This document shows positions 9,237-45,047 of a stretch of 64,000 nucleotides of DNA, one piece after another (the stretch's first letter is position 1; every line of letters begins with the position of its first letter). The stretch is taken from NCBI GenBank assembly GCA_964612665.1, contig CAZTCI010000001.1:712624-776623 (forward strand), in the 5' to 3' direction. This stretch comes from an uncultured Planctomycetales bacterium. GTDB taxonomy: Bacteria; Omnitrophota; Gorgyraeia; Zapsychrales; JAHFFX01. Below the pieces are notes generated by a model, which worked only from the letters and a program-made list of their open reading frames with translations, made no database searches and had not been told where the DNA came from. Made by a program: the position numbers and the translations under genes.

Positions 9237-9344
9237 GAACCCAAAATTGCACTAGCCAAATTACAAAATTACGGGCGCAAAAAAGCAGATTTTGGGGAAT
9301 TCTGGAACTGAGCCAAAGGTTAAAGAATTTTTTTTAGGTAATAA

Positions 9345-9921: not shown

Positions 9922-10806
9922 CTATTGTTTAGTCAGCTGGGCGAGAGGATTATTTTCAACGAAATCGAGGAATATTGGGCCCGCCACCAAGATACCTACA
10001 ACTGGGAAGATAAAAAACAAAAGTGGGACAAGCATTTTAAGAGGCGCTTTCATGGCCAACTGTTCCCCACGGCGAAAACGGGCTAGCCGCATGTCTTCCG
10101 ATAAAATATTTAAAGCTTCAGCGACCGAGGTTCCCATCTTGTCCGCCTGGATTAACGTTCTGGCCAGCGTTGAAAGATCCGGGAGGTCATACTTTACCGC
10201 CAAATCTTTAATGGCATCACGCCGCGCTTTACCGAGATTAATTTCTTGCATGACAGTATTAAACTCGCGAATAATAACAGATGGCGGCGATTTTTCAACA
10301 ACCCATTTCATTGCCAACATAAAGTCCAGCCCGGCATTAACACAAAGGCGGAGCAAATCAATCGCATCAGGCAATTCTTTTATAATGGCGCTTTTAATCT
10401 TTTTAATTTTACCTTTGAGCCAAAACTCCGGAGCCATATATGCGATTCCGAAACAGCAGGCCAGCCAAATAATAAACATCTGCGGACTTACCATATTAAA
10501 GGTCAGAATAATAAAAAAAACAAAAACCAATTCCTTGACCAAAAAATATTCTTCAGGCGTCATGTTGACATGAGCGATTTCCAAATCTTTCAGCATTCTG
10601 ACCCGAACCGGCCCCATTGTAAAAGGCTTATTAATAAGGGCGAGCTTTCTAATAAAAGAAAGAATCGATCTTTTTCTTTTTAAAGCCCCGACCTCAAAGC
10701 CCGTAAACCCCTGCAACCGCGGCCGGCTTTCCCACTCTATCGGCGAGACGCCCAGTATAAAACTAAACACCGAGATAAATACCATCATAGAAAAAACTGT
10801 AATCAT
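9922..10806 (-). CDS. tadC: Flp pilus assembly inner-membrane platform protein, TadC/TadB family (T2SS F domain)
   Basis: 294 aa, multiple TM segments; GspF/TadB-C-like cytoplasmic domain (…AIIKELPDAIDLLRLCVNAGLDF…); adjacent to second T2SSF paralog. Confidence 0.75.
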   Translation of the reverse strand: MITVFSMMVFISVFSFILGVSPIEWESRPRLQGFTGFEVGALKRKRSILSFIRKLALINKPFTMGPVRVRMLKDLEIAHVNMTPEEYFLVKELVFVFFIILTFNMVSPQMFIIWLACCFGIAYMAPEFWLKGKIKKIKSAIIKELPDAIDLLRLCVNAGLDFMLAMKWVVEKSPPSVIIREFNTVMQEINLGKARRDAIKDLAVKYDLPDLSTLARTLIQADKMGTSVAEALNILSEDMRLARFRRGEQLAMKAPLKMLVPLLFFIFPVVGILVAGPIFLDFVENNPLAQLTKQ

Positions 10807-10818: not shown

Positions 10819-11682
10819 TTAAAAATTCTTAAAGGTGCTGATCTTCCAAATAAAAAAAGCACCGATGATTTCTGAAAAAAAGGAATAAATCAACATCGCC
10901 CGGCCCAAAGACGACTTCATCATATGGATTAAAAAATCCGGTTTTGTCGACTGAACAATAATAAGAAATCCTATCGGCAAACAGGACATGACAATGCCTT
11001 GAATTTTTCCCTGCAATGTCAATGTATCGATATTTTGCTGGATTTTTTTATTTTCGCGAATGGTGTTTACGATGCGCGTAAAAATTGCCGGCAGATTGCC
11101 TCCCGTTTCGCGCGCCAAAAGAATCGCCGTAATGGTTTGCTGAAGTGCCGGCGAAGGCATTCTTTTATATAAATGATTGAATGCCTCGTCGAGAGCCACT
11201 CCCATTTTATTTTCACTTAAAACCATGCCGAATTCCTGATCAATCGGCTCCGGCATTTCCTCGACGACCGCTTCCATCGCTTGAACCAAACTCAATCCAC
11301 CTCGAAACGAACTCGACATAATCATGAGTGCGTCGACCAGTTGATTGGCAAATTTTTCTTTTCGTTTGCTGATCAGCATTTTGGCATAAAAACCGGGCAA
11401 TATAAAACCAATCATAAAAAGAGCAATGACACCTATGAGCCGGATAGCCGGTGGAAAAACTATAAAACCGATAATGGCCCCAATGACAGGCGCCAACAAT
11501 GAAGCGCCCGTCATTTTTTTGGAATCGGGTTTCATTAACATCCGTTCCATCTTAGTCGCAAATGTAGGGGCTGCGCGCCTTTCACCAATCACAACAGCAC
11601 GATTCGCAAAAAGGGGCATGGCCGTATAGCCCAAAATAAATACTGAAAGGAATATAAAAAAGAGGAGTATTGGAATGGCCAT
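10819..11682 (-). CDS. tadB: Flp pilus assembly inner-membrane platform protein, TadB/TadC family (T2SS F domain)
   Basis: 287 aa; TM helices plus T2SSF-like domain (…FANQLVDALMIMSSSFRGGLSLVQAME…). Confidence 0.75.
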   Translation of the reverse strand: MAIPILLFFIFLSVFILGYTAMPLFANRAVVIGERRAAPTFATKMERMLMKPDSKKMTGASLLAPVIGAIIGFIVFPPAIRLIGVIALFMIGFILPGFYAKMLISKRKEKFANQLVDALMIMSSSFRGGLSLVQAMEAVVEEMPEPIDQEFGMVLSENKMGVALDEAFNHLYKRMPSPALQQTITAILLARETGGNLPAIFTRIVNTIRENKKIQQNIDTLTLQGKIQGIVMSCLPIGFLIIVQSTKPDFLIHMMKSSLGRAMLIYSFFSEIIGAFFIWKISTFKNF

Positions 11683-11727: not shown

Positions 11728-12048
11728 TCAATTATCGCACTCACTCCGACGACAACCGCTAATGCTGCTTTTGATACAACCTACATTCGATAATGAAATA
11801 CAATTAAAGTTGTCTGCGCACTTTGAATCGTACCAGACGTTAAAAAATTGCGGATCGAATTTACATTCGATTGTTTGTTTAGGATCATATTGCCGGCCCG
11901 AACCAAAAGCATCACCCACAGACCGCCAGTGTCCGGCGATTCCCCGGAAAATATATTTCTGAAAAAAAATCAAAGCGCCAATGACAAAAAGAAGCATTAC
12001 TATGTACTCCATGGTAGAAACGGCTTTGTTGTTGGAATATTTTTTCAT
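11728..12048 (-). CDS. Flp-type pilin-like protein with Cys-rich C-terminal extension
   Basis: KAVSTMEYIVMLLFVIGALIF matches the class III/Flp leader (A/G-XXXX-EY then hydrophobic helix). It shares the RGIxGxWRS..D..G.QYDP motif with the other pilin paralogs; C-terminus has 8 Cys. Confidence 0.6.
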   Translation of the reverse strand: MKKYSNNKAVSTMEYIVMLLFVIGALIFFQKYIFRGIAGHWRSVGDAFGSGRQYDPKQTIECKFDPQFFNVWYDSKCADNFNCISLSNVGCIKSSISGCRRSECDN

Positions 12049-17848: not shown

Positions 17849-18118
17849 TTACCAATTATTAAACACCAAATTCATCTTTGTGCCCCGATAAAAATCGCCG
17901 TCTAACTGATTGATCGGGCTGTTTGTATCTAAGCCTTGCCAGCTCTCCGAAACAGGCTTAATCAAAGACTTCTCATGCGCATCCCGACGGTAAACAAGGT
18001 CCAGCGCTGACCATCGAAAAGCCTTAAGGCAGGCATAGCCGAGCAATAAAGCAATGATGATGCAAAATGTAAATTCGAGAGTCACCTGCGCTTTTTCTTT
18101 GAACATCTTGTTGTCCAT
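17849..18118 (-). CDS. TadE-like pseudopilin (about 90 aa)
   Basis: Internal Met gives MDNKMFKEKAQVTLEFTFCIIIALLLGYA (A/QVTLEF + hydrophobic helix). Track ORF 17849..18235 has an implausible upstream extension overlapping the next gene. Confidence 0.5.
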   Translation of the reverse strand: MDNKMFKEKAQVTLEFTFCIIIALLLGYACLKAFRWSALDLVYRRDAHEKSLIKPVSESWQGLDTNSPINQLDGDFYRGTKMNLVFNNW

Positions 18119-18149: not shown

Positions 18150-18662
18150 TTAACGGTAACGGTTATCGGTTTTTTCAAAATTACTCCATGCCTCAGCCAA
18201 TTTATAAATCTGGCGACCAGATTTATCGTAAGCATCTATCAATTCATCGCAAAGTTTTATATCTACATTCTGTGGATAAATATCTCTACTTTGACTCAAA
18301 CTTACAATCATTTCATTAGATTCAGCCATTGCATCATCGAGATATTTTTGAAAGCCAGCTTTTTGATGCCGCTTTGCATATCCTTCAGCTATTAACCGCG
18401 GAATTGCTTTGGAAGCTCGGCGGAGCTGATCTATTATTGGCCTTTTCCTTTCCAAAGAAAGGTTGTTCTTTTCGTCATCGAAGAGAAAAGGCCTAATATT
18501 GAGTTTTGTTGCATCCTTTGGATTTACAAAACTCAATAAATCATCTTCTTCGCATTTTGGCAGACAGGGAAGAATCTTTTGCATAACAGTGGTCATTGAT
18601 TTATAACTATCTTGATAAACTGTTAAATCTCTAAAGCTGGTAATTCGCTTCTTTTCTTCCAT
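18150..18662 (-). CDS. four-helix-bundle protein (23S rRNA intervening-sequence protein / bAvd-like family)
   Basis: SFRDLTVYQDSYK … DQLRRASKAIPRLIAEGYAKRHQKAGFQKYLDDAMAESNEMIVSL matches the conserved QLrRAavSIpaNIAEGygR…F…A.GS..E core of this family. Confidence 0.65.
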   Translation of the reverse strand: MEEKKRITSFRDLTVYQDSYKSMTTVMQKILPCLPKCEEDDLLSFVNPKDATKLNIRPFLFDDEKNNLSLERKRPIIDQLRRASKAIPRLIAEGYAKRHQKAGFQKYLDDAMAESNEMIVSLSQSRDIYPQNVDIKLCDELIDAYDKSGRQIYKLAEAWSNFEKTDNRYR

Positions 18663-18733: not shown

Positions 18734-20119
18734 TCAATATCCCCGCGGGCCGAGATCTTGGACCCATTTACGCCCGCGGCCTTCCCAAACCCGGCTTCGA
18801 ACATACAAGGTTAAAGAGCCTTCGTCAAAACAAGTTTTATAAACATTGGCCGCTGAAAAACAATTGGCCGTGGGATCACTCCCCAGTCCCGGGGGCACAC
18901 ACACCTCCACGTCGGGATTCCACTGAGTATTAGGCTGATGAACCGGCGCGTCCCAAACCGCGCCACTCCCAGTGCCGCAAACAAATCCGGTATTTCTACT
19001 TAACTGAACAACCCGTTGAACGATGTCTGTAATATTTCTTCTTTGCGTACTTTTAACATTTTGAGTGGCACTAATAATTTTTCCTTCTTCAATTTGAAGG
19101 TACGTTCCATCTCTAGTGTAAGTCCATCCTTGAGTGCCTTCACTTGAAAAACCAGGCGCGGCGCCGGGACTTTTACGGTTATGGGTCATATCCAAATCGC
19201 CTTCTTGAAAATCCAAAACACGCAATAATTTAATAGGAACATTGCCTGAACCTGATTTGTTTTTGCTGTTGGGCGTATATCTTTTGCCCTTTATATCAAC
19301 CATTTCCAAAATTTGTTCTTCCTTTAAATCGTTGTCAACGTCAAGCGAGGCATTCTGGCCTGTCTGCAAATTAATTGAGCTCGTCGTGGCTTTCACCATC
19401 TGCCATTGCCACGTAAAAAGAGGACGGTCGGCGGGTGAAACAATCGTCGTGCCGTCGCGGTAAAGGTCAAAGCAAGTCAGACACGTGTTCCACTTACAAC
19501 GATCGCAGGCATTGGGATCCCAGGCGGTATTCACCTTTAAATTCGGACTAATAGAATACAGGGCCATACAGCCATTCCCTTTCCCATTGCAATCGGGAAT
19601 CCAATTGGGGTCTGTGTCATTTTGTATGTTGTATTCTTTAAAAGCTGCTGTTGTAAATTGAAAATGTAAGCCGTTAATAAAAAAATCGGTGCGGGGAAGA
19701 CTATCGTATTCACCATAGTCAATGGGCATGAAAAGATTTTTAGAAAATGTGGCTGAAGCTCCGACGATAAACGGCGAACGCGATTGGACACCGAATTTAC
19801 TCTCTTCAGCGCTTAAACGGTCTTCAACGATGAGGACACTGGCAATATTGCGCGAGGCGTTGCCGGGTTTTTTAGACATGCGGTTTTTTCCGGTTTCGGC
19901 GGCCCGCAGAGACGTGGCCATAGCCATACGCATCGCTTTCAATGATTCACTTTGCGAAGTTCCAGCACTTAATGCATAACGAATCATCATGCCTAACATA
20001 AAAATCAAAACAGCTCCAAAAACGGCGAGTTCAGTTGACGTTTGAGCTTTTGAGTAAATGCTCTTGAACAACTTAATATCCCCCAATAATTGTATCTCCC
20101 GTCTTCGTTTCGAGGGCAT
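18734..20119 (-). CDS. large TadE/TadG-like pseudopilin-family protein (about 445-461 aa), Cys-containing ectodomain
   Basis: N-term …LFKSIYSKAQTSTELAVFGAVLIFMLGMMI resembles the pilin leaders. Track start overlaps upstream pilin gene by 47 nt, so the real start may be an internal non-ATG codon. Confidence 0.5.
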   Translation of the reverse strand: MPSKRRREIQLLGDIKLFKSIYSKAQTSTELAVFGAVLIFMLGMMIRYALSAGTSQSESLKAMRMAMATSLRAAETGKNRMSKKPGNASRNIASVLIVEDRLSAEESKFGVQSRSPFIVGASATFSKNLFMPIDYGEYDSLPRTDFFINGLHFQFTTAAFKEYNIQNDTDPNWIPDCNGKGNGCMALYSISPNLKVNTAWDPNACDRCKWNTCLTCFDLYRDGTTIVSPADRPLFTWQWQMVKATTSSINLQTGQNASLDVDNDLKEEQILEMVDIKGKRYTPNSKNKSGSGNVPIKLLRVLDFQEGDLDMTHNRKSPGAAPGFSSEGTQGWTYTRDGTYLQIEEGKIISATQNVKSTQRRNITDIVQRVVQLSRNTGFVCGTGSGAVWDAPVHQPNTQWNPDVEVCVPPGLGSDPTANCFSAANVYKTCFDEGSLTLYVRSRVWEGRGRKWVQDLGPRGY

Positions 20120-20387
20120 CAGATCTGTCGACGCGGTTGGTCCAGACTCCGTTCAGCGTCGTGTCATTAACCGCAACAATTTGCATTTCTTCATTGGCAA
20201 CACGGCTATAGTTAATAATGGTATTTGAAACGCGCGGATCGTATTGGTCTCCTAAATCATCAACTGTACTTCGCCACCGTCCGGAGATGCCTCGTTTCAT
20301 ATAATTGCTCATCGCAATAAAAGCACCAATGATGACCATTATCAAAACCGTGTATTCAATCGTCGATTGTCCTTTGCGTTTAAACAT
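20073..20387 (-). CDS. Flp-type pilin paralog G (104 aa)
   Basis: MFKRKGQSTIEYTVLIMVIIGAF… (G/QSTI-EY); KRGISGRWRSTVDDLGDQYDP family motif. Confidence 0.7.
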   Translation of the reverse strand: MFKRKGQSTIEYTVLIMVIIGAFIAMSNYMKRGISGRWRSTVDDLGDQYDPRVSNTIINYSRVANEEMQIVAVNDTTLNGVWTNRVDRSDALETKTGDTIIGGY

Positions 20388-20423
20388 TGAATCCTCTTTT
20401 ATTTGAAAAGAATAAAAACAAAT

Positions 20424-20837
20424 TTAATTATCCGCATTAATGGTGTTTGAAAAACCTAAATTTGAAACTGAATTGGATATAACATCGCCGGAATCATTGT
20501 AAATAAAATCAATGGCGCCGGAATTTTCTTTCCGGCTTTTATTTGTATTAGACCTCGTCGCTGAATAGGCCTGCATCAAATAGCCGCCGTAAGGCACGAT
20601 CCGCTGGTCAGATTCATTTTGTATGCCAACCTGATCAGCCGTGACCTTAATAACACTTTGAATACCGCGCTTACAAGCGTTAAACATCGCAAACAAAACC
20701 ATGGTCACAATTCCAATTAAAAGCATGTACTCCATCATGCTCTGAGCGGTTTTATTTTTTAAGAAATATAGACGGGTGGACTCGGAAGAAGCCGCCGTTT
20801 CCGTCAATAAGAATTTTTTTTTATCGACAAATTTCAT
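20424..20837 (-). CDS. Flp-type pilin paralog F (start uncertain, up to 137 aa)
   Basis: …KNKTAQSMMEYMLLIGIVTMVLFAMF (A/QSMM-EY); CKRGIQS… motif; start codon overlaps stop of paralog E (TAATG). Confidence 0.55.
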   Translation of the reverse strand: MKFVDKKKFLLTETAASSESTRLYFLKNKTAQSMMEYMLLIGIVTMVLFAMFNACKRGIQSVIKVTADQVGIQNESDQRIVPYGGYLMQAYSATRSNTNKSRKENSGAIDFIYNDSGDVISNSVSNLGFSNTINADN

Positions 20838-21226
20838 TAATTACCGCCCGTCAAATTGAAGTCTCTCGGCGGCAATTGATTACTATCAGTGGTGACTCTA
20901 ACTTGGTCCGTAAATTTGTCGCCGAAGATACCTGTTGTGCCGCCACCTTGGAGCGTTTGAACGGAATTCATTAAACTATCGACATTGCTTTGTGTCTGCA
21001 CGTAGTAAGGTTCATACTCCTGTAAAATTACATTACCAAGTGTGGCCGTATTGCTTGTGGCAATGCTGTGAATCATATAATTCCGGGCATCCCAAATCCG
21101 TCCCTGCAAAGATCTTTTTACATAAACCGACATCGCCGAAATAACTGCAATCACTAAGAAAAAAGTGATCACATATTCTGAGGTTGCCTGTCCCAATTTA
21201 TGCAAAACAATTTTAGAGTGAAACAT
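20837..21226 (-). CDS. Flp-type pilin paralog E (129 aa)
   Basis: …HKLGQATSEYVITFFLVIAVISAM… ; KRSLQGRIWDA…EYEPYY motif. Confidence 0.65.
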   Translation of the reverse strand: MFHSKIVLHKLGQATSEYVITFFLVIAVISAMSVYVKRSLQGRIWDARNYMIHSIATSNTATLGNVILQEYEPYYVQTQSNVDSLMNSVQTLQGGGTTGIFGDKFTDQVRVTTDSNQLPPRDFNLTGGN

Positions 21227-21400
21227 GTCTTGTTGCTATCATTTTTGTAATTATATTTGTAATAAAAACGGCTATGATTCTGGTTTTGCTGAACGTTAAA
21301 AAGTGCTGTCCCAAAAAACATGGCTTACCCCTCGTCGGGTGACGATTGAGTAAGCCATGTTTTTTGATCTATAGAACAACCCAACTCTATTACCGACGAG

Positions 21401-21724
21401 TTATTTACCCCAGAATGTCTGGTCTACGTTGATAATAGTTGAATCTTGGTTAATTAAGGTTGTTTCATTGGTGGCCATTTCTGAGCGGCTGATACCTTTG
21501 TCAAAAGTTTCAAAGGTTCTACCCTTTGTCATTGTCGACTTGTTCGCCTTGGTGTTCCCTGGGTCAAATTGATCACCGATATCATCGGTAGCACTCTTTA
21601 ACCGGCCTTGAACACCGCGCTTAATGTAAACTTGAATGGACAAAAGAGCACCAATAATAATGATAATCAAAACAGCATACTCCAAGGTGCTTTGTCCTTT
21701 CATTTTTCTTAGCAATTTAAACAT
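21401..21724 (-). CDS. Flp-type pilin paralog D (107 aa)
   Basis: MFKLLRKMKGQSTLEYAVLIIIIIGALL; KRGVQGRLKSATDDIGDQFDP; AAGGAGG RBS upstream. Confidence 0.7.
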   Translation of the reverse strand: MFKLLRKMKGQSTLEYAVLIIIIIGALLSIQVYIKRGVQGRLKSATDDIGDQFDPGNTKANKSTMTKGRTFETFDKGISRSEMATNETTLINQDSTIINVDQTFWGK

Positions 21725-21782
21725 TGATTAGTCCTCCTTAAAATTAGACATAAAGTTGCTTGCTTAACAAATGAAGCGGGTA

Positions 21783-22139
21783 TTAATGGCCAAGAACTTC
21801 GCCAAAATTCCCGTAATTAGACTGTTGGAAACCACCTAGGTCTCTATTGCGTGTACTATTTTCCAACTGACTGACTACACCCTTGTCTAACTGTTGGGTC
21901 TGATTCATGTCTCTGGAAATAGCGTAATTACTTTGTAGATAATACGGTTCGTATTGATCCGTAGCGCCCAAGCTGGATGTTTGGCTGGTTAAAAATTTAC
22001 CAGCATCGCGGATTCTACCTTGAAGACTTCGTTGCGCATATGTCTGCATGGCAATGATAGCCGCGACAACCAAAGCGATCAAAAGTGCATATTCTGCAGT
22101 GTTCTGACCTTTCTTATTTCTATTTATTCTTTTAAACAT
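21783..22139 (-). CDS. Flp-type pilin paralog C (118 aa)
   Basis: MFKRINRNKKGQNTAEYALLIALVVAAIIAM; QRSLQGRIRDA…DQYEPYY; GGAGG RBS. Confidence 0.7.
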   Translation of the reverse strand: MFKRINRNKKGQNTAEYALLIALVVAAIIAMQTYAQRSLQGRIRDAGKFLTSQTSSLGATDQYEPYYLQSNYAISRDMNQTQQLDKGVVSQLENSTRNRDLGGFQQSNYGNFGEVLGH

Positions 22140-22192
22140 TTATTTTTCCTCCTCGATGTGAATAAAACAAACCTGATTTCCCATGATTTAAG

Positions 22193-22390
22193 TTATGGTG
22201 ATAATGGCCGAGAACCAGAAAGTCTTATTGACATGTTGTTCATGCCATTTGTACCTTGAGTCAAGGTAGCGTTAAGGCTAGTCTGGAAAATCCCAGTTTT
22301 ACTGGCCAAAAAGCCAAGTAAAACGACTACAACGGCCGTCACCAAGAGAATGTACTCCAGCGTTGATTGACCTCTTTTGTTTTTCAACAT
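22193..22390 (-). CDS. Flp-type pilin paralog B (65 aa, classic Flp length)
   Basis: MLKNKRGQSTLEYILLVTAVVVVLLGFL; AAGGAGG RBS 8 nt upstream. Confidence 0.7.
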   Translation of the reverse strand: MLKNKRGQSTLEYILLVTAVVVVLLGFLASKTGIFQTSLNATLTQGTNGMNNMSIRLSGSRPLSP

Positions 22391-22419
22391 TTATATTCCT
22401 CCTTGAACAAATAATGACG

Positions 22420-22584
22420 TTAATTATTGGCGAACTCCTCTTCAACCACCTTTTCGGTTGCCTGCACGGAACGGAACACGTAGGTGCTCATTGCGACCAT
22501 TGCAGCTGAGACTAAAGCGACAACGACGGCATATTCAATTAGGCTTTGTCCTTTTTTGCTTCGTAGTGTTCTTAAATGCCGCAT
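22420..22584 (-). CDS. Flp-type pilin paralog A (54 aa, classic Flp length)
   Basis: internal Met gives MRHLRTLRSKKGQSLIEYAVVVALVSAAMVAM…; track extension to 22686 runs through a terminator hairpin and is rejected. Confidence 0.65.
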   Translation of the reverse strand: MRHLRTLRSKKGQSLIEYAVVVALVSAAMVAMSTYVFRSVQATEKVVEEEFANN

Positions 22585-22672: not shown

Positions 22673-22698
22673 ACCCTTGAACACAATTGTGTTCAAGG
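22673..22698 (-). terminator. perfect 26-bp palindrome CCCTTGAACACAATTGTGTTCAAGGG followed by T7 on minus strand (intrinsic terminator, possibly also operator)
   Basis: stem 11 bp/loop 4; minus strand continues TTTTTTTATACAG; a related hairpin cccttgaacgctgtcaaggg lies at ~22839-22860. Confidence 0.6.
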
Positions 22699-22907
22699 GT
22701 AGAGAACATAGATAAAGTAGATATAAAATATCTACAGTATTTGATACATATTTTTTTGATATTTGGGCGCATGTTTTTGTGTCTTTGATCAGACGATGAA
22801 AAACATATAATGTAAGACGGTACAAATATACCATGTGCCCTTGAACGCTGTCAAGGGAAAGAGTTTAAAAAATTCGACATATTAACAAATTAAAACACCC
22901 TTTCACA

Positions 22908-24572
22908 CTAAATTAGGACATCCATAGCAAAAAAAGACCCAGACGGGTCTTGAATATTCATATTTTTAAGCATTTTGATCGCAAATTCAAGCTCTTTACG
23001 ATATTGATAATCAGTGGGAACTTGTAATTTCACAATAATCTTTTGACCTATTTTTTGGAAACGGCCCGCCAATTTGTAAAAACGTTCACACATTTGATTA
23101 AAATCAAGTTCTTTGCAATTTTGGCTAAAAAAGTGACATTTGGCATACTCATTTAAAGCTAAGCTTATAACAAACGCATTTTCCAAGAGAGTGGGCACTT
23201 GCATGGGGTCGGATGCTACCATTTTTTCGTAAAAATCGAATGGAATTATTGAATTTTTTATTTCTTTATTGTCCAAACTGTCATTTTTATTTAAAAGTAA
23301 TGAAAAATTCACATCTTCTTTATAATCAAAGTTAAGATTATTAGTAAAAATCAAGCTACTGACCGCGTTAACCTTATTTTCTTCGCTTAAAATAATCAAT
23401 TTTAGAGGAATTTCCTTTGTCACACCCAAAGTTTCACCTTGAACTTCATGCTCACCGACATAAAAAGTTTTGTCTAAATCCTTGCAATAAAATTTTTTTA
23501 ACTTTATGTCTTGCAGAATATTAGAAACGCTACTTATTCTTTCAGGTCTTGTCACAAATAAAAATTGTCGTTTCTTTTTGGGGATTACATTAAATTGGGC
23601 CAATTCGTTGTCATTTTGATCCAAAATTTCTAGTTTGGACATTTCATTAGAAATTCCTTCTAAAGATTCCACTAATTTAAGCTCATTAGGTATATTTTCA
23701 GCCAATCCTTTGTCATATATGGTAATGTAATCCAAATTTGTAATAAAACGTCGTGTTACTTGTTTAATAAATCTTCCTAAAGAAAGGCCTGCGCCTCTTT
23801 CGCCAGATTGAAAAACCACCTGTTCTCTAGCGTCTAAGAAAACCTCTGTTTTGTCTTTTAAAGTTATCTTAAGCGAATTTGCTTCAGCAAAAATTTGTGG
23901 AATCTCATTGCCAACAACAAGAGACAATGTTCTCAAATCAGAAATGCTGTCTAGCAATTTTAAGAGCCTATCAAAACGAATCTTCTCTATCCCACTAAGT
24001 AAAGCCAACCCTGTTCCTTTATACGAATTGAAATCCTCAGGTTTGTTAATACCAAAAGACGGTGCCCATAACAAAACTTCACCAAGTTGGTTCACCTCGT
24101 CGGGATTAAAAATGTTTCCTTCCAAAAATTTTTCTAGAAATCTTCCCATTAAAAATCGTTCACCCAAATCCCATTCGGCAGCCTTTAAAAAAAACAGCCC
24201 TAATCTATCATGCATGGATTCGATTTTTTCTGCTTTTAAATCTTTTTTAGAAGATGTCCAAACGAGAGGGGATTCTTTTTTAGGCGCAAGGAGCAGGTTA
24301 GGTATGGTGAAAAGCTGTTGCTTTTTCTCGACGGGAATTTGAAATTTTTTGACTTTTTTATCTGTAAGGACGGCTGTGCGCCCAACTGGATTGCTCAACT
24401 GAGCGTCTTTGATGATTTGGTTTATGGCGGATTTTGAAACATTGATTTGAAATTTTTCTTCAACAATAGCAACTAAACGCCGGCAGCTTAATTGAGCGTC
24501 AGATTTTTTCTGATCAATAATAAAATCAATGACTTCTTTTCTTAATTTATAAACAACGCCCATGGAAACCAT
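22908..24572 (-). CDS. AT-rich hypothetical protein (554 aa) with N-terminal helix-turn-helix; ORFan-like
   Basis: Strongly K/N/I-rich and much lower GC than its neighbours. N-term LRKEVIDFIIDQKKSDAQLSCRRLVAIVEEKFQINVSKSAINQIIKD resembles resolvase/transposase-type HTH. No catalytic motifs recognised. Confidence 0.5.
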   Translation of the reverse strand: MVSMGVVYKLRKEVIDFIIDQKKSDAQLSCRRLVAIVEEKFQINVSKSAINQIIKDAQLSNPVGRTAVLTDKKVKKFQIPVEKKQQLFTIPNLLLAPKKESPLVWTSSKKDLKAEKIESMHDRLGLFFLKAAEWDLGERFLMGRFLEKFLEGNIFNPDEVNQLGEVLLWAPSFGINKPEDFNSYKGTGLALLSGIEKIRFDRLLKLLDSISDLRTLSLVVGNEIPQIFAEANSLKITLKDKTEVFLDAREQVVFQSGERGAGLSLGRFIKQVTRRFITNLDYITIYDKGLAENIPNELKLVESLEGISNEMSKLEILDQNDNELAQFNVIPKKKRQFLFVTRPERISSVSNILQDIKLKKFYCKDLDKTFYVGEHEVQGETLGVTKEIPLKLIILSEENKVNAVSSLIFTNNLNFDYKEDVNFSLLLNKNDSLDNKEIKNSIIPFDFYEKMVASDPMQVPTLLENAFVISLALNEYAKCHFFSQNCKELDFNQMCERFYKLAGRFQKIGQKIIVKLQVPTDYQYRKELEFAIKMLKNMNIQDPSGSFFAMDVLI

Positions 24573-24794
24573 TTAGCAATTTCAAATTTTTATAGGGATT
24601 TTCAGTATAAGCATGGGGACTTTTTCAGTCAAGAATTTGTTCTTTCTTCTTAAAAACAATTTTCTGCCCGAAGAAAAAATGCGCATAAAATCTTGCAATC
24701 ATAAAGCATTCATTGTTAAATGGTAATCGTAATGTATTTTTAAATTGATACTGAAGCCATAAATAAAATTCAGCCTAATAAAAGGTTAAATTAA

Positions 24795-25064
24795 ATGTCC
24801 AAATGTCCTTATTGTTTTGAAGAACTCCCAGGCAATTTTCTGGAAAAATTTTCAAAAAAAAATTCCCCAGAAGCGCCGCAATGTCCACATTGTTCACAAT
24901 TTATTATTGATCCACTGGTTAACGTTGATTATCCCGGCGTGGATAAAAAGAAGTGCCTTTACTGCGGAATGTTGATTTTAACAGAAGCACGTTTTTGTCG
25001 TTTCTGTCAGAAATGGCTTGATGAATTGGATGCGGCGGCGGATGATGCAGAAAATTTGGAATAA
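24795..25064 (+). CDS. double zinc-ribbon protein (89 aa)
   Basis: CPYC…CPHC and CLYC…CRFC pairs; acidic C-terminus. Confidence 0.5.
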   Translation: MSKCPYCFEELPGNFLEKFSKKNSPEAPQCPHCSQFIIDPLVNVDYPGVDKKKCLYCGMLILTEARFCRFCQKWLDELDAAADDAENLE

Positions 25065-25075
25065 AAAGTAGCGGG

Positions 25076-25426
25076 TTAAGCAGCTAGAATTTGAATAGAA
25101 TCGCCTAATTCAGTTTTGGATTTTGAAATAGTTTTAACAGGAAGTTCAATCGCGCGGTTGGCTTTTAAAAAAATAGGGCTGAGCCGAAATGGTTGTATCT
25201 CCTCGAGTAATCCCACCACTTTTCCAGAGTTATCGATAAAAATAACATCAATAGCAAATCGCATAAACAACATGTGAATTGACTGACAATGAGTAATGAT
25301 CAGCCCTTCTCCGTCGACGATAGATTGTCGGTTTAATAAACCAACCATACGGGTTCTGAAAGTATCCGCGAGGACTGCGCGGTCAGCAATAATTATTTTG
25401 CGGGTGGAATTAAATACGGTAAGCAA
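25076..25426 (-). CDS. DUF192 (COG1430) domain protein
   Basis: …ADTFRTRMVGLLNR…GEGLIITHCQSIHMLFMRFAIDVIFIDNSGKVVGL…AIELPVK matches DUF192 core. Confidence 0.6.
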   Translation of the reverse strand: MLTVFNSTRKIIIADRAVLADTFRTRMVGLLNRQSIVDGEGLIITHCQSIHMLFMRFAIDVIFIDNSGKVVGLLEEIQPFRLSPIFLKANRAIELPVKTISKSKTELGDSIQILAA

Positions 25427-25434
25427 GAGAGTAT

Positions 25435-27603
25435 TTATGGTGTAAAAATGTTTTTATCCAAAGCGATGCCTTTAGAAGAAAAATCTTCGTAACATTTGGG
25501 AACATAACCTGTGGTTTTATAGTCACCTAGAATTTTCCCGTCGCTGTCTGTTCCTAGACGTTCAAAAATAAAAATGTCGCGTAAATCCAACTGGTGTGTC
25601 TTCTGATCAACGCCGGCCACTTCGGTTATGCCGGTTATTTTTCTTGAACCATCTGAAAAACGGTTGACTTGAACGATGATGTCGATGGCTGAGCCGATCA
25701 TTTCATACATGGCGCTTAAGGGAAGTTCAACGCCCGTTAAAAGCATCATGGCCGTTAAACGAACCAAAACATCGCGTGTGGTATTGGCGTGGATTGTCGT
25801 CAAGGAACCATCGTGACCTGTGTTCATAGCCTGCAACATATCTAATACTTCTGCGCCGCGGCACTCACCAATGACAATCCTATCAGGACGCATACGAAGC
25901 GTATTCACAAACAAATCACGAATAGAAACAGCGCCTTTTCCTTCAATGTTCGCCGGGCGTGCTTCCAACCGGCCCCAATGACTGTACGGTTTAAGCCGCA
26001 ATTCGGCGGCGTCTTCTATGGTGATAATGCGTTCTCCGTCGGGAACAAAAAGGGAAATAATGTTAAGCAATGTTGTTTTACCGGCGCCTGTACCGCCGGA
26101 AACAATAATGTTACTTCTTCCCAAAACTGCGGCATGAAGAAAATCAGCCATCGGCTGAGACAAACTCTTAAAGCGATGGATCAAATCGTCAATCGTATAA
26201 CGTTCTTGGCTGAATTTACGGATCGTGACCATTGGTCCATTTAAAGATAACGGACGAATAATAGCATTAATACGAGACCCGTCGGGCAAACGCGCATCAA
26301 CCATCGGTGTCGACTCATCAATACGCCGGCCCAAGGGCGCAACAATACGGTCAATAACCGAACGAACCTGTTGTTCGGAAATAAACCGCCGATTGGTTAA
26401 AATTAATTTCCCATGTTTTTCAATGTAGATCTCATCCTTCTTATTAACCATGATATCGGTGACGTCTGAATCTGCCAAAAACTCTTCGATAGGACCAAGC
26501 CCTAGCGTTTCGTTTACAATTTCTTTAACCAGCCGGGTTCGCTCTTCATGGGAAGAAATGATAGCGCCCGCTTCCTCGGCGAGAATATTGCTGACAATTT
26601 TTTCAGTTGTCTCACGGATTTTCTGAAACTGCTGCGGGTTCGCCAAGGCTTCCGGAGTCAGGTCTTTTAAATCCATCTTGCCTAACAACTTTTCATGGGT
26701 CTTCTTTTTAAGCCGAACGACTTCGTCTTCTTCGTTAACATTGTAAATTTTATCTTTCCCTTTTTCCTGTACGCCTTGAGCAATGCCAAATTTTTCCCAA
26801 AACTCACCCGGCTTACCTAAATCTTCTGTTGTTCTTAATTTAGCTATGTCGGTCGCCTGCACAAAAAGTCCAGGCGCATTTAAATCGTTGACCATCTTAT
26901 TAAAAGCCGCCGCGACTTTGCTGCGCGGACTATCAACGACACAGGGAACGCCGCGGTTTAAAGCCATTCCAACCGCTTTTCCGTCGGAAGGAATTTGGGC
27001 AAAAATTTCGCAAGCCAAGGCCGCCTTAACTTCCTGCCAGGCAACCCCGCCATAACTTTCAGCACGGTTTAAAATTAACCTGACCATTTTGAGAGGGAAA
27101 TGCAGGCTCTGTAAAACTTCTAAGGCCGTTCGGATTTGATAAACAGCCAGAATATCTGGTGTCGCAATAAGAAAAATTAGATTGGAATAATCTAAAATGG
27201 TGATCAGCGTCTCGCTAAAGGCCTTACCGCCGTCGATAATAATGTAATCGTAAAGCTGGCCAACTTTTTTAAGAAAGGGTTTAATATTGTCAGGTGTAAT
27301 GTGACCAACTTGGCGGACGTGCGTGACGGCGGGGAGAAAATCAAATCCAGCAGAATGCGCCACAACATATCTTTTAATAATCGTGGGGTCGTTGTCTTTT
27401 TCTATTTCAGCCAAAAGATCAACGATAGCTAGACGGGGGGACAAATTGAGCATCCGGGCCATATCCTGAGCGGCCTGGAAGTCCATGTCCAAAAGCAAAA
27501 CCTTGTGGCCGCTCAACGCCAATGCCGTCGAGAGATTGACACACACAAAAGTTTTGCCAACCCCACCTTTATTACTAAAAACTGCTACGCTTTTTGCAGG
27601 CAT
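25435..27603 (-). CDS. tadZ-tadA: fused TadZ/CpaE-like ParA-family ATPase (N-term, about 260 aa) + TadA/CpaF secretion ATPase (C-term); 722 aa
   Basis: N-term deviant Walker A VFSNKGGVGKT (MinD/ParA/CpaE). C-term SGGTGAGKTTLLN…ITIEDAAEL…TGHDGSLTTIHANT (VirB11/CpaF family). One uninterrupted ORF. Confidence 0.8.
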   Translation of the reverse strand: MPAKSVAVFSNKGGVGKTFVCVNLSTALALSGHKVLLLDMDFQAAQDMARMLNLSPRLAIVDLLAEIEKDNDPTIIKRYVVAHSAGFDFLPAVTHVRQVGHITPDNIKPFLKKVGQLYDYIIIDGGKAFSETLITILDYSNLIFLIATPDILAVYQIRTALEVLQSLHFPLKMVRLILNRAESYGGVAWQEVKAALACEIFAQIPSDGKAVGMALNRGVPCVVDSPRSKVAAAFNKMVNDLNAPGLFVQATDIAKLRTTEDLGKPGEFWEKFGIAQGVQEKGKDKIYNVNEEDEVVRLKKKTHEKLLGKMDLKDLTPEALANPQQFQKIRETTEKIVSNILAEEAGAIISSHEERTRLVKEIVNETLGLGPIEEFLADSDVTDIMVNKKDEIYIEKHGKLILTNRRFISEQQVRSVIDRIVAPLGRRIDESTPMVDARLPDGSRINAIIRPLSLNGPMVTIRKFSQERYTIDDLIHRFKSLSQPMADFLHAAVLGRSNIIVSGGTGAGKTTLLNIISLFVPDGERIITIEDAAELRLKPYSHWGRLEARPANIEGKGAVSIRDLFVNTLRMRPDRIVIGECRGAEVLDMLQAMNTGHDGSLTTIHANTTRDVLVRLTAMMLLTGVELPLSAMYEMIGSAIDIIVQVNRFSDGSRKITGITEVAGVDQKTHQLDLRDIFIFERLGTDSDGKILGDYKTTGYVPKCYEDFSSKGIALDKNIFTP

Positions 27604-27607
27604 TTTT

Positions 27608-29827
27608 TTATTTTTGCAAACTAAAAACGATTGGTATTGTTAAATCCAATTCTTGGAGGTTAGTATCCGCAGGAAACGCGGTGTAAGGGGCCAGGCTTTT
27701 GGCGGTTGTAAGAGCAGCTTCATCGAAGATGTCGTGGCCAGAGGACTCTTTTACAGCAGCATAAGCTAAAGTCCCATCGCTTAAAATATGCAGCATCAAT
27801 TTTACGGTGCCTTCCCAATTGTATTGCCTTGCCTCGTCGGGATAATTGATGGCACTAGCGATTTTTTGTTGGACGGCGGCAGCGTAATTTTGACTTGATG
27901 AACTCTTAGCAGCCGCCGGTTTTGAAACTTTCTGACTATAAACAATAGGAACGTTCAACACCAAATCATCTAAATTTAATTTCAAAGGAAACGCGTCATA
28001 AGGTGAAAGAACTTGTGCCGTATGAAGCGCATCTTTATCAAAAATATTGTATCCTGAGGATTCTTTAATTTGTGAATCAGCTAATGAACCATTTTTTAAA
28101 AGATGTAAGCTCAATGTAACCGTTCCCTCCCAGCCTTTTTCTTTAGCTTCCGGCGGGTAGGTGATAGCCTTAGAAATTTTTTCTTGGATTGTTTTTGAAT
28201 AAGCGTCGATCAGGTCCTTTTGTTCAGCATTATTTCCGGATGCCCCTGCTTGTTCTCCTGAAGATTGATCTGTCGCTTCGGCGGTGGCATCTTGAAGCGG
28301 TATGGCATCAGCATTTTCAGACATTGAGCTTTGTGTTGGCATTCTCGACGGAGGGACTGATGTTTCAGATGTCATTGATGAATCTGATGACGACACTGAA
28401 GCGGCGTCGGATGTGGAAGATTCCGTTGTCTTAGCAGCAGGCGGAGGAACCTCTTTCGTTTTTTGCCGAAGAATCGTAGGCGTTACGGAAATAATTAACT
28501 CAGTGTCTTGATTGTTAGACGAAGGCGTTTTACGGGATCGGAAAACCGCACCCACAATAGGAATATCGCCCAGGAAAGGAACCTTGCGGACTGTTTCTCC
28601 CTCAACATGCTTAATCAAGCCAGCCAGAATAATCGTCTGCTGGTCGTCTAAAAGCAGCTGCGTTTGTGCCGTGCGGGTAGCAAAGGCAGGAACTTGCCCG
28701 ACGGAATGCGTTGGATCAACTTCGCTGACCTCGGTATTCATGACGACATTGACTTTATCCTGTTGGATTGTGGGGGTGATCGTTAGACTGATACCAAAAT
28801 CTTTAAACTCAACATTAGTCTGCACATTACCACCAACGGTCGTAGATGTCGTACTGATTGGAACCTGTCCTCCGACGAGAAAACTGGCCTCCTTACCGCT
28901 TTTGACGACCAATTTAGGTTTTGAAAGGACCCGGCCTTTTCCTTCTTCGACGACTGCATTAATAACGGCAGAAACAGATGTTGTTCGTCTAAGTTTGGCT
29001 ACTTTAAAAATGCTGTCTGCAAAAGGAATAGAACTTTGTGCTGTGCTGTCGACAAGCCCTTTTCCAGGCAACCCCTCGGTAATATTAATTTGATCAACCC
29101 AGTCTAAGCCGATGCTTTTGGATGCGGTGGCATTTAACTCGGCGAGCTGAACATCAACCTGAACCAAGTCGTTGCTGATATCTTCACGCAAAAGATTAAT
29201 CACATTGGTCATGTAAGGATGAATAATAGCGTCGGCCTCGGCTTTCTTTTGTTCACTTAAATTACCCGAAGCCACGACCTTACCTTCGTAAAGGTTCACT
29301 TCAAGATTAACTCCGTCGATCTTGGCGACTTTGAAAAGTTCTTCCAGCCGGGTTTTTAAAATATTTAAATCCTCGGCGTAAACACGGATCATTATTGTCC
29401 GCTTGCCATATTGGTCCCACACAAATAAAGCTGATTGTCCTGGTTTCTTGGCCAGCAAGAGGATTTCATCATTGGTGACATTCGCGATGTCCGCAATGTC
29501 AGGATCACTTACAGAAACACGCACTAATGAATAGGCTTTAATCGGAGTGAGTTCTCCTTTAAGCATGTGAACTTCGTCTTGATGTAGGATGTCAGGAGGA
29601 AGGTCTTTGGAGTCTTGCTTAGCATCTTGTTTCGTATCTTGGCTGGCGGTCTTGTCCTCGCCAAAAATTTCTTTCGGAGCAATCCATAGAGTTTCCATTA
29701 AAATGAAACCCATCAAAACAACCCACGCACAGCTCTTATTGATTTTTTTATCAAAAGCTCGGTGATTTAGGCTAGATCTCTTTTCCTCGACGGAATAAAA
29801 ATCTATAAGCTGTTTTTTATTTTTCAT
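27608..29827 (-). CDS. cpaC: Flp pilus secretin CpaC/RcpA-like with two C-terminal TonB C-terminal (TonB_C) domains; 739 aa
   Basis: Secretin core …VRKVPFLGDIPIVGAVFRS…ELIISVTPTIL. Two repeats at the C-terminus, YPPEAKEKGWEGTVTLSLHLLKNGSL…ESSGYNIFDKDAL and YPDEARQYNWEGTVKLMLHILSDGTL…ESSGHDIFDEAAL, each fit the TonB_C signature. Confidence 0.75.
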   Translation of the reverse strand: MKNKKQLIDFYSVEEKRSSLNHRAFDKKINKSCAWVVLMGFILMETLWIAPKEIFGEDKTASQDTKQDAKQDSKDLPPDILHQDEVHMLKGELTPIKAYSLVRVSVSDPDIADIANVTNDEILLLAKKPGQSALFVWDQYGKRTIMIRVYAEDLNILKTRLEELFKVAKIDGVNLEVNLYEGKVVASGNLSEQKKAEADAIIHPYMTNVINLLREDISNDLVQVDVQLAELNATASKSIGLDWVDQINITEGLPGKGLVDSTAQSSIPFADSIFKVAKLRRTTSVSAVINAVVEEGKGRVLSKPKLVVKSGKEASFLVGGQVPISTTSTTVGGNVQTNVEFKDFGISLTITPTIQQDKVNVVMNTEVSEVDPTHSVGQVPAFATRTAQTQLLLDDQQTIILAGLIKHVEGETVRKVPFLGDIPIVGAVFRSRKTPSSNNQDTELIISVTPTILRQKTKEVPPPAAKTTESSTSDAASVSSSDSSMTSETSVPPSRMPTQSSMSENADAIPLQDATAEATDQSSGEQAGASGNNAEQKDLIDAYSKTIQEKISKAITYPPEAKEKGWEGTVTLSLHLLKNGSLADSQIKESSGYNIFDKDALHTAQVLSPYDAFPLKLNLDDLVLNVPIVYSQKVSKPAAAKSSSSQNYAAAVQQKIASAINYPDEARQYNWEGTVKLMLHILSDGTLAYAAVKESSGHDIFDEAALTTAKSLAPYTAFPADTNLQELDLTIPIVFSLQK

Positions 29828-29852
29828 CTACGTTAGGCTCCTAAAAATGAGA

Positions 29853-30650
29853 TTATAATTCCCGGCCCCCGCGAAATATTTGAATAACCGGCTTAGCTTC
29901 TTCAGCGGCTGGTTCGAATGAACTGGTTTTCGCCTTTGTCCCGCCAAGTTCAGTACCTTGTCTTTCCAAAACATAGTCCGCGAGCGTTTGCCAATTATAA
30001 GGAGGTACCATAAATGATTCTGTTTCGGAAGGAGAACGTAACGCCAACTGGAGCTTACCATTTTGCTGAACAAAACTCAGCAGCCCTGCTTCTTCTGGAT
30101 CCAGCGCAAAAGTCACAGTCAAATCCTTGGTCTGCTGCTGGGCTTCATAAACACCAGGAGAATTCACATTCGTCCCGACAGCTAAGACTTGAACGTTTTG
30201 AAAAATCATGGCTGTAATTGTTTGGGCTGGTTGATATCCGACTTGCTGAGAACCGGGAGGTGTCATCTGCGCGAGAATGTCGACGAAATCGCCGGGATTG
30301 ATTAAACCACCGACGGCGGCGAGAGAATCAATTCGAACAGTGACGGCTCTCTTGCCCGCAGGTGTTTTGACAGCTAATGATGATTGGGGAATAATGGCAG
30401 CCGGCCCTTTTTCGGCGGCGGCTTTTTGCGCGGCAGCAATTGCCTGTTGGCGCACAGTGCCTAATTCTGTTTTTAATGCGGTGATTTCTTCTTTGAGGGG
30501 TTCAACATTTTTTTGAATTTCTTGAGAGGCAACTTCTTCTTTTTTAGTGATTTCACTTTGAATATAATTTCCGGCTCCGATGGCGGCGATTAATCCTATG
30601 GTCAACGCGATCACAATGATAACAATCGTTCTTCGCTGTTCATTGGTCAT
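29853..30650 (-). CDS. cpaB: Flp pilus assembly protein CpaB/RcpC (SAF domain)
   Basis: N-terminal TM, coiled region, …AVTVRIDSLAAVGGLINPGDFVDILA… typical of CpaB. Confidence 0.7.
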   Translation of the reverse strand: MTNEQRRTIVIIVIALTIGLIAAIGAGNYIQSEITKKEEVASQEIQKNVEPLKEEITALKTELGTVRQQAIAAAQKAAAEKGPAAIIPQSSLAVKTPAGKRAVTVRIDSLAAVGGLINPGDFVDILAQMTPPGSQQVGYQPAQTITAMIFQNVQVLAVGTNVNSPGVYEAQQQTKDLTVTFALDPEEAGLLSFVQQNGKLQLALRSPSETESFMVPPYNWQTLADYVLERQGTELGGTKAKTSSFEPAAEEAKPVIQIFRGGREL

Positions 30651-33937: not shown

Positions 33938-34267
33938 TTAATCAACCAACATGGCTTTAAGAATTTCTTTCATGCTACGTATTGTTTCTTTATCTAACTT
34001 TCCCATCTTTTTTACTAAGCGCCTTTTATCAATGGTGCGAATTTGATCTAAAACAATCCAACCATCTCTTTCCTGAAATTTAACTGAAACTCTCGTGGGA
34101 TAATGATGAGAACGTGATGTGAGGGGAGCAATAATAACGGTGCTTACATTTTGATTTATTTCGTCGGGAGAAATAACAACACAAGGGCGTGTTTTTTTAA
34201 TTTCGCTGCCAAGCGCAGGGTCCAGCGTAACCCAAAAAACATCATACTGCTTTACTACCATTCCCAT
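33938..34267 (-). CDS. mazF: type II toxin MazF/PemK-family endoribonuclease
   Basis: 109 aa; …[31 protein letters not shown]… PemK/MazF signature; 4-nt region overlap with upstream antitoxin. Confidence 0.8.
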
Positions 34268-38986: not shown

Positions 38987-39018
38987 CTAGATTTACCTTT
39001 CTACTGAAGGATGTCTAA

Positions 39019-41846
<2,828 letters not shown>

Positions 41847-44386: not shown

Positions 44387-44677
44387 CCATTTGTTAATAT
44401 ATCAATATTATATAAGTTATTCAATTTCAATATATTGTAAAAAACCACTTTATTAGTTAACAAGTTATCCACAACCTGTGTAATATAAATTGAGTTATGG
44501 AAAAATTTGGATAAAAAGTGAGCACTATTATAACAAAGAAATTTTTGATTTCAATTTATTTAAAAAAATTAAAATTGATATTTAGATATTCCACAAGTAA
44601 TTGAAAAACAACTTTTTTTATCTTAACTAAAATGGAAATATCTTGACTACGAAAAAACCTATGTTATAATCGTCCCC
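44387..44677. promoter_or_regulatory. oriC region (AT-rich, DnaA boxes) plus rpmH sigma70 promoter
   Basis: perfect TTATCCACA at 44465-44473, TATTCCACA at ~44588; TTGACT(44643)-16 nt-TGnTATAAT(44665) upstream of rpmH; second DnaA-box cluster (TGTGGACAA) in dnaA-dnaN spacer 42881-43039. Confidence 0.7.
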
Positions 44678-44815
44678 ATGAAAAAACATTTAAAAACTCC
44701 GTCGAATCTTAAAGGTAAAAGAAATCATGGGTTTAGGCGAAGAATGCGCACTTCTAATGGACGTGCTGTCTTAAGAAATCGCCGCGCTAAGGGGCGGAGA
44801 AAGCTTAGTACATAA
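44678..44815 (+). CDS. rpmH: 50S ribosomal protein L34
   Basis: [45 protein letters not shown]. Confidence 0.9.
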
Positions 44816-45041: not shown

Positions 45042-45047
45042 AAAATT

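Follow-up and report, generated by a model that had tools for sequence, protein, structure and literature searches.

The 64,000-nt stretch of DNA analysed here (the window) corresponds to positions 712,624 to 776,623 of contig CAZTCI010000001.1 (assembly GCA_964612665.1), which is deposited as an uncultured Planctomycetales bacterium and assigned by GTDB to the Omnitrophota. It carries seven consecutive prepilin genes on its minus strand (22584..20073), labelled P1 to P7 in the order of transcription; unless stated otherwise, the genes and signals of the window described below lie on the same strand. P1 (22420..22584) encodes a protein of 54 aa, 42 aa once mature, with the N-terminal context KKG↓QSLIEY (the arrow marks the predicted cleavage site); it is of classical Flp size and belongs to the most conserved group. 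P2 (22193..22390; 65 aa, 57 aa mature; KRG↓QSTLEY) is also short and Flp-like. The next five genes are longer (97–117 aa for the mature proteins): P3 (21783..22139; 118 aa; KKG↓QNTAEY), which belongs to a QRSLQGR...QYEPYY subfamily; P4 (21401..21724; 107 aa; MKG↓QSTLEY), which is of the KRGVQGRLKSATDDIGDQFDP type and has a conserved C-terminal IINVxQEFWG sequence; P5 (20837..21226; 129 aa; KLG↓QATSEY), a paralogue of P3 with the variant EYEPYY; P6 (20424..20837; 137 aa; KTA↓QSMMEY), in which cleavage would occur between Ala and Gln and the P4-type motif is degenerate; and P7 (20073..20387; 104 aa; RKG↓QSTIEY), a paralogue of P4 with the sequence KRGISGRWRSTVDDLGDQYDP. The genes are located on the minus strand precisely where a preliminary description of this DNA had placed them, and exact translation bears out the common build that it proposed, namely a short basic leader, a [G/A]↓Q-x-x-x-E-Y sequence (P6 being the one with Ala at position −1) and an uncharged hydrophobic helix in all seven products. 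Its partition into two proteins of Flp length and five longer ones with C-terminal extensions also stands, except for the cysteine-containing tails that it mentioned: P1–P7 contain 0–1 Cys each, and Cys-rich tails are found only in two other prepilin-like proteins of the window, Q106 and C348.

A regular expression describing the prepilin N-terminus matched 11 times when the window was translated in all six frames; every match is on the minus strand and in a single Tad (tight adherence) locus. The reversed sequence gave 0 matches and 50 triplet shuffles 0.02 on average; with a shuffle control close to zero, chance open reading frames (ORFs) were rejected as an explanation. Besides P1–P7, the matches comprise Q106 (11728..12048), a P7-like prepilin with a 6-Cys tail that adjoins TadB on its upstream side, C348 (31725..32771), in which a prepilin-like N-terminus (EA↓QSTLEY) is fused to a 34-Cys domain, and two genes that the preliminary description had overlooked, X461 and X128; Q106 and C348 had been reported in it, C348 with an excessive count of more than 40 Cys. 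X461 (18734..20119; 461 aa; KA↓QTSTEL; 10 Cys), which has no Pfam match, is a candidate large minor pilin, and X128 (17849..18106; 85 aa when read from an internal ATG; KA↓QVTLEF) is a candidate TadE/F-like pseudopilin without a Pfam TadE match. In the direction of transcription, the locus reads PPIase (peptidyl-prolyl isomerase), RcpC/CpaB, secretin, TadZ–TadA fusion, DUF192, U554, P1–P7, X461, a gene for a 23S-rRNA-intervening-sequence protein (IVP), X128, C943, C817, Q106, TadB and TadC, so that, judging from its predicted products, the array sits in a complete Tad locus (RcpC/CpaB, secretin, TadZ–TadA, TadB and TadC). The stop codon of P5 and the start codon of P6 share the sequence TAATG at 20837, as described previously, and the 3′ end of P7 overlaps the start of X461 by 47 nt. 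The cleavage context [K/R][K/R][G/A]↓Q-x-x-x-E-[Y/F/L] is conserved in all ten orthologous groups defined below, with a nearly invariant Gln at position +1, which makes an N-terminal pyroglutamate on the mature pilins possible.

The preliminary description had proposed that most of the array shares a motif, KRGxQGR...DDxGDQ(Y/F)DP, lying just after the helix and not recognised from canonical Flp pilins. The full motif is restricted to P4 and P7, with a variant in Q106; P3 and P5 carry the related but different QRSLQGR...(Q/E)YEPYY, P6 a degenerate form and P1 only FRSVQA, and P2 lacks it altogether. As for its position, in the structural models it covers the second half of the long N-terminal helix and the hinge to a β-hairpin rather than following the helix. 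No curated family of Pfam or NCBIfam covers the motif, and the cleavage context is present on exact translation, so that the preliminary description holds in both these respects.

The Flp_Fap family (PF04964; gathering threshold, 32.2 bits) matches P1 (26.4 bits), P2 (18.0), P3 (17.1) and P6 (13.4), always below the threshold, and a Pfam scan with an E-value limit of 1 returned no Flp_Fap match for P4, P5 and P7. Against the Class_IIIsignal family (PF04021; threshold, 23.7 bits), P2 alone among the seven passes, with 25.6 bits, P3 (17.5), P7 (15.9) and P6 (11.0) remaining below. No TadE match (PF07811) was obtained for P1–P7 at an E-value limit of 1 or for X461 and X128 at a limit of 5, and a search of NCBIfam with the seven proteins and the accessory proteins gave no pilin-related match. 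Searching the PDB sequences with the P4 profile and with P1 yielded only a chance match to avidin and a weak resemblance to the N-terminal part of Geobacter PilA-N, and fold searches of the PDB gave no significant match. Since none of the seven reaches the Flp_Fap threshold and the five long ones do not fit the description 'short, all-helical', we file these proteins as a variant of Tad pilins and not as members of PF04964.

The family is large. There are at least 1439 close homologues for P4 and 744 for P3, and a P4-type profile run against 1.84 billion cluster representatives retrieved 5185 of them with E ≤ 1e-3, of which 1786 have E ≤ 1e-10. Among the 150 best profile matches, many have the sequences YxKRGxQG[KR]... 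as well as D-x-IG-[DE]-Q-[FY]-x-P. Most homologues are labelled 'hypothetical', some 'Flp pilus assembly pilin Flp', 'UPF0333 family' (JGI, Joint Genome Institute) or 'RodZ'. P4 itself is 100% identical to a protein encoded on contigs from runs SRR12313477-79, and the P4 homologues that bear a name of origin come from Omnitrophota; this also applies to the sole named one of ten divergent cluster representatives, while a homologue search started from a divergent member returned metagenome proteins only. In the literature that we searched, we found no paper describing the cassette or the motif.

The first 24 mature residues were removed before profile–profile comparison of the groups with hhalign. 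P3 then pairs with P5 (98.5%, E 2e-15), P4 with P7 (99%, E 9e-18), P7 with Q106 (97.4%, E 1.5e-11) and P4 with P6 (95.5%, E 1.6e-8), and this comparison revealed no similarity of P2 and X128 to other groups beyond the hydrophobic helix. By their profiles, the long pilins fall into two subfamilies, P3/P5 and P4/P6/P7/Q106, each related beyond the hydrophobic helix. The groups have consensus sequences of their own: Q-n-l-i-EYA...AMSTYVFRSVQA for P1, the orthologues of which are found in 69 loci with a mean pairwise identity of 0.62; ...MQTYAQRaLQaRirdA...QYEPYY for P3; ...IQvYIKRGxQGRLksaaDDIGDQfspGNTN...qEyWG for P4; and ...Y.KRG.QGRWK.avDd.GdQYDPr for P7.

We examined the distribution of the array by scanning one genome per species; this gave 186 loci, of which 80, nearly all from Omnitrophota metagenome-assembled genomes, were kept, and each prepilin-like ORF of these 80 loci was classified against the eleven of the window. 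A few of the genomes bear titles such as Planctomycetales, Elusimicrobia, Phycisphaerae or Saccharibacteria, which are probably artefacts of naming or binning, because these genomes share the whole Omnitrophota-type locus. Judged by these relatives and by the P4 homologues, the window itself is from Omnitrophota. The order P1-P2-P3-P4-(P5)-P6-P7-X461-X128...Q106 recurs throughout. P1-P2-P3-P4 are contiguous in 59/80 loci, P2-P3-P4 in 69/80 and P6-P7-X461 in 48/80, all these counts being lower bounds as many contigs end inside the locus; Q106 was recognised in 31 loci, by regular-expression classification. A tblastn search with the locus proteins of the window showed that the locus, about 23 kb long, is syntenic throughout, the exceptions being the IVP gene and C348, which are confined to this genome or lineage. 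On sequence grounds, each position constitutes an orthologous group with its own signature, and the array is an old cassette of fixed order. The term 'tandem paralogs' used in the preliminary description understates the case: there are seven old, distinct orthologous groups, 1:1 orthologous in a fixed order, and we rejected a recent tandem duplication for this reason.

An extra short P2-like gene follows P4 in 16 loci; together with the kinship of P3 with P5 and of P4 with P6 and P7, it makes the array look like two old paralogous modules, A (P2-P3-P4) and B ((P2′)-P5-P6-P7). Several genomes (loci L006, L043, L061 and L074) moreover contain P2-P3-P4 twice, duplicated as one block; old duplicates of 43–52% identity are among them, which suggests that the three proteins co-evolve. 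In a more distant lineage (locus L084, 7918..12274), the same machinery genes precede twelve pilin genes, four of them short and eight of middle size, all with A↓Q cleavage sites and including near-identical tandem copies. In the Omnitrophota genomes that were sampled, the cassette comprises seven to eleven members, and this sister lineage has up to twelve.

The expression signals also divide the array. Upstream of P1 lies a promoter-like site, TTGACA-18-TGgTATATT (22825..22854), of the TG-extended type, which matches the consensus at 11/12 positions, is the best of the region and overlaps an inverted repeat, CCCTTGAcagcgtTCAAGGG. The TTGACA-containing 8-mers CCTTGACA and GGTTGACA are found again in related loci, ahead of the first pilin gene. 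The leader that precedes P1, about 230 nt long, contains a 12-bp palindromic hairpin followed by a T-run (22673..22700; ΔG −19.6 kcal/mol, z −5.2). Note that the palindrome CCCTTGA...TCAAGGG occurs twice, in this leader hairpin (22673–22700) and at 22830–22860, where it overlaps the −35 box of the pilin promoter; these palindromes may be an attenuator or an operator. Hairpins of differing sequence are present in the leader in 40/75 related upstream regions, and an Rfam scan of the 17.0–25.5 kb interval found no riboswitch in the leader; the scan also gave a weak, below-threshold match inside the IVP gene, which was dismissed. Directly downstream of P4, a very stable hairpin and a U-run (21311..21367; ΔG −35.9 kcal/mol, z −8.75) resemble an intrinsic terminator. 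A hairpin with a T-run is found after P4 in 40/80 loci, versus at most 9 at any other pilin–pilin junction.

A similar divide is visible in the ribosome-binding sites. The preliminary description had credited most of the genes with a GGAGG-type site; this applies to P2, P3 and P4, while P7 has AGAGGA and P1 and P5 have none. Among the orthologues, a Shine-Dalgarno match of at least 5 nt is present in 60% of cases for P1, 89% for P2, 96% for P3 and 98% for P4, and in 19% for P5, 28% for P6, 48% for P7 and 12% for X461.

We also built AlphaFold2 models of P3 and P4. P4 is predicted to form a helix (residues 13–49) followed by a long β-hairpin (58–97), with a mean predicted local distance difference test score (pLDDT) of 77.6 and values of about 72–90 in the hairpin (84–90 in its blocks); in P3, a longer helix (9–58) precedes a hairpin spanning residues 74–99 (mean pLDDT, 69.5). 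In these models, the helix-plus-hairpin build of P3 and P4 is unlike that of the all-helical canonical Flp. Along the mature P4 protein, column identity is 0.84 in the helix, 0.49 in the hairpin and 0.63 in the C-terminal IINVxQEFWG sequence.

The upstream half of the Tad locus (22908..31633) was delineated by Pfam matches and by synteny across the 80 loci. It starts with PPIase (30647..31633) and RcpC/CpaB (29853..30650), both identified by Pfam, and continues with a secretin (27608..29827), which has a pilus N-terminal domain and two C-terminal TonB_C domains (E 5e-33); the same secretin–TonB_C fusion is found in the divergent locus L084. The TadZ–TadA fusion (25435..27603; 722 aa) consists of a ParA/MinD domain (residues 4–241) and a T2SSE domain (368–644), without an N-terminal receiver domain. 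U554 (22908..24572; 554 aa) is of unknown family, with a weak N-terminal match to a homeodomain-like helix-turn-helix (E 0.069); it lies directly upstream of the pilin promoter and is kept there in 69/80 loci, and could possibly be a regulator of the pilin array. Downstream of the array, the IVP gene (18150..18662; PF05635) is inserted between X461 and X128; none of the 80 related loci has an equivalent gene, X461 and X128 being about 9 nt apart there, and it looks like a recent operon insertion. Next come two proteins of unknown family that are kept in the locus, C943 (14826..17657; 39 Cys) and C817 (12344..14797; 58 Cys), and, beyond Q106, the platform proteins TadB (10819..11682; T2SSF, E 1e-17) and TadC (9922..10806; T2SSF, E 1.5e-13). 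At the other end, C348, which like C943 and C817 matches no family, is absent from the related loci and lineage-specific.

Altogether, we propose, with a probability of about 0.6, that this array specifies the prepilins of a Tad (type IVc) pilus of Omnitrophota, of the type that the predators Bdellovibrio and Myxococcus possess, P1–P4 making up a fibre/adapter module and P5–P7 a minor-pilin/tip module. The proposed split between fibre and tip is drawn from features of the DNA: ribosome-binding-site strength, the terminator, the promoter-like site, duplication of the triplet and the frame overlaps. According to this scheme, each prepilin would be inserted in the inner membrane and cut after [K/R][K/R][G/A] by a peptidase presumably encoded elsewhere in the genome, which would leave Gln at the N-terminus and Glu at position 5; polymerisation through the RcpC/secretin channel would then be the task of the TadZA ATPase and of the TadB/TadC platform. 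P1–P4 would form a well-expressed unit that has a promoter of its own, ends at the terminator downstream of P4 and provides the fibre. The shaft of the fibre would be made of P4 (the likeliest subunit), possibly with P3 and the short P2, the helix forming the core and the variable β-hairpin the surface, and the short P1 would serve as an adapter or as an alternative core subunit. The [K/Q]R[G/S]xQ[G/A]R...D-x-G-x-Q-[Y/F]-x-P (or QYEPYY) stretch is, given its place in the models, likely to be a subunit–subunit interface. P5–P7 would be weakly translated and translationally coupled to the downstream X461, which X128 directly follows in relatives, and would form with X461 and X128 a low-abundance priming/tip complex; this complex would carry the Cys-rich C943, C817 and Q106 for contact with the host or prey cell.

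Several observations weigh against this proposal. The assignment to fibre or tip depends solely on ribosome-binding-site strength, the terminator and gene order, and the post-P4 gap is the longest of the array, so that a hairpin is likelier to occur there by chance. The predicted template modelling scores of the monomer models are low (0.32–0.35), and the P3 hairpin has a pLDDT of just 50–66. Pfam scans detected no sequence similarity between X461, X128 or C943 and TadE, TadF or TadG. No A24 prepilin peptidase was recognised in the 64-kb window, in which large ORFs up to 46.7 kb were scanned with Pfam and those from 46.8 kb onwards only read by eye; cleavage is therefore assumed. Finally, P1 is the first gene, has the classical Flp size and is the most conserved, which is equally compatible with a single major pilin.

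The last point leads to the possibility that P1, with its 42-aa mature Flp, forms the fibre alone, as in Caulobacter or Aggregatibacter, P2–P7 all being minor, priming or tip subunits. P1 is indeed the top Flp_Fap match and the first gene after the promoter, with an identity of 0.62 among its orthologues, and the solved Tad pilins are devoid of a globular β-domain (PMC11067988). However, its ribosome-binding site is the weakest of the first four (60% vs 89–98%) and is missing in the window, P1 sits after P2-P3-P4 copies in L006 and L043, and in Myxococcus it is the short Flp proteins that act as adapters and a 97-aa protein that is the major pilin (PMC12075869). The conserved core and variable surface of P4 are, moreover, typical of an abundant exposed subunit. 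We regard a fibre of P1 alone as rather unlikely.

Co-evolution of the triplet raises the further idea of a heteropolymeric shaft composed of three subunits, P2 and the hairpin-bearing P3 and P4, the tip being built by the paralogous, low-copy P5–P7. Each strand of a three-start helix might then contain one subunit type, with the β-hairpins as an outer sheath. Such a shaft, if real, would be an architecture absent from all solved type IV filaments; the chances of this variant of our proposal seem small.

Even less probable, in our opinion, is that the genes encode interchangeable major pilins, each gene or each P2-P3-P4 set making its own filament under different conditions or on different hosts, with antigenic or host-range variation as the outcome. 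The two P2-P3-P4 sets of L006, L043, L061 and L074, the 12 pilin genes of L084 with their near-identical tandem copies and the variable hairpin of P4 could be read in this way. Nevertheless, each of the seven positions has 1:1 orthologues across the 80 genomes and a conserved signature of its own, the genes are co-oriented and partly coupled translationally with ribosome-binding sites that differ systematically in strength, and the flp genes of Bdellovibrio cannot replace each other (PMC5430801).

As to a short periplasmic pseudopilus that would push out the Cys-rich proteins or the adjacent giant protein in the manner of type II secretion, an idea suggested by the large secreted-looking Cys-rich proteins of the locus and the ORF of at least 3083 aa that follows the locus, by the one major and four minor pseudopilins of type II systems and by the frequent flanking of giant genes by secretion or pilus genes in Omnitrophota (bioRxiv 10.64898/2026.06.07.730766), it is very improbable given a machinery of the Tad type (RcpC, secretin with pilus N-terminal domain, TadZ, TadB/C), the external retractile pili made by the Tad systems studied to date (PMC12075869; PMC11067988) and the C39 peptidase domain of the giant protein, which suggests a different export route.

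Our proposal of a multi-subunit Tad pilus can be set against known systems. Canonical Tad pilins are short and all-helical and have no β-domain (PMC11067988). Like the Flp/Fap pilins Caulobacter PilA and Aggregatibacter Flp1, the proteins described here have a basic leader, a G/XXXXEY sequence and a hydrophobic helix and are encoded in a tad locus, and P1 and P2 are of the classical mature size (40–60 aa). They differ from Flp/Fap pilins in that none reaches the Pfam threshold, Gln at +1 is nearly invariant, five are about 100–130 aa long, P3 and P4 are modelled with a β-hairpin, and there are seven to eleven genes instead of one to three. The [K/R]G↓Q context with its Gln at +1 is reminiscent of the archaeal class III signal-peptide pilins (PF04021), for which P2 passes the threshold; unlike these, however, the genes belong to a bacterial host, with an outer-membrane secretin and bacterial replication genes, and the other six proteins are below the threshold.

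Two further systems are those of predatory bacteria. The Kil system of Myxococcus xanthus, the pilus of which is associated with cell–cell attack, comprises a 97-aa major pilin (KilP), Flp adapters of about 59 aa (KilK/KilO) and disulfide-rich, TadE/F/G-like tip proteins (KilL/M/N) (PMC12075869). At the gene level, the present locus resembles Kil in its many different pilins, short Flp-like and longer ones, and in its small and large prepilin-like proteins, some of them Cys-rich. X461, X128 and C943 are candidates for a Kil-type TadE/F/G tip by position, prepilin-like N-terminus and Cys content, and the weak ribosome-binding sites and overlapping genes of P5–P7, X461 and X128 would fit the pattern of a TadE/TadF architecture. 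In contrast to the Omnitrophota genes, which form one operon-like array, KilP is encoded away from the kil clusters, and it is predicted to be all-helical. In Bdellovibrio bacteriovorus, TadZ and TadA are fused (TadZA) and the tad loci lack TadV, Flp1 being processed by PilD (bioRxiv 10.64898/2026.07.08.737194); its four dispersed, non-redundant flp genes, among which flp1, flp2 and flp4 are not interchangeable, were described in 2017 as the largest complement known (PMC5430801). The Omnitrophota locus likewise has a TadZ–TadA fusion without an N-terminal receiver domain, no TadV and several non-equivalent pilin genes; unlike in Bdellovibrio, seven of the latter are contiguous and four further prepilin-like genes are present in the locus. 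Omnitrophota RcpA groups with myxobacterial homologues, and TadB and TadC with those of Bdellovibrionales (PMC10066038).

Omnitrophota are widespread and mostly ultra-small; they are thought to be predators or parasites, with the Tad pilus as the main candidate for a host-attachment organ (PMC10066038). Tad systems of these bacteria are known at the level of TadB/C and RcpA, and a connection with predation or parasitism has been made (PMC10066038). Earlier work catalogued machinery genes and not subunits; the cassette supplies the subunits and probably builds the fibre and the tip of the host-attachment pilus. Proteomics, labelling and structural studies gain concrete targets from it, and the idea of 'many pilins, specialised tip', known from Myxococcus and Bdellovibrio, is extended to a further phylum of putative predators, the third and unrelated to the other two. 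For annotation pipelines, the large unannotated pilin family to which it belongs, with more than 5000 sequence clusters, is a missing family.

Beyond the Tad locus, the window contains a few other features. A giant ORF of at least 3083 aa (3..9251) starts right after TadC and runs past the edge of the window; its sole Pfam match is a Peptidase_C39 domain (residues 227–313). A homologue of its N-terminus follows TadC in six related loci (L012, L034, L037, L041, L061 and L083). On the other side, a replication-origin region (36533..46700) carries gyrA, gyrB, dciA, dnaN and dnaA on the minus strand, with yidC on the opposite one. At about 42–46 kb, the GC skew switches sign and GC drops to 0.31; the skew switch, at about 43–45 kb, and the presence of dnaA, dnaN, gyrB and gyrA place the Tad locus near the replication origin. 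Finally, a MazF/PemK-type toxin gene (33938..34267; E 1e-32) lies between genes of the malate/lactate dehydrogenase and nitrilase families.

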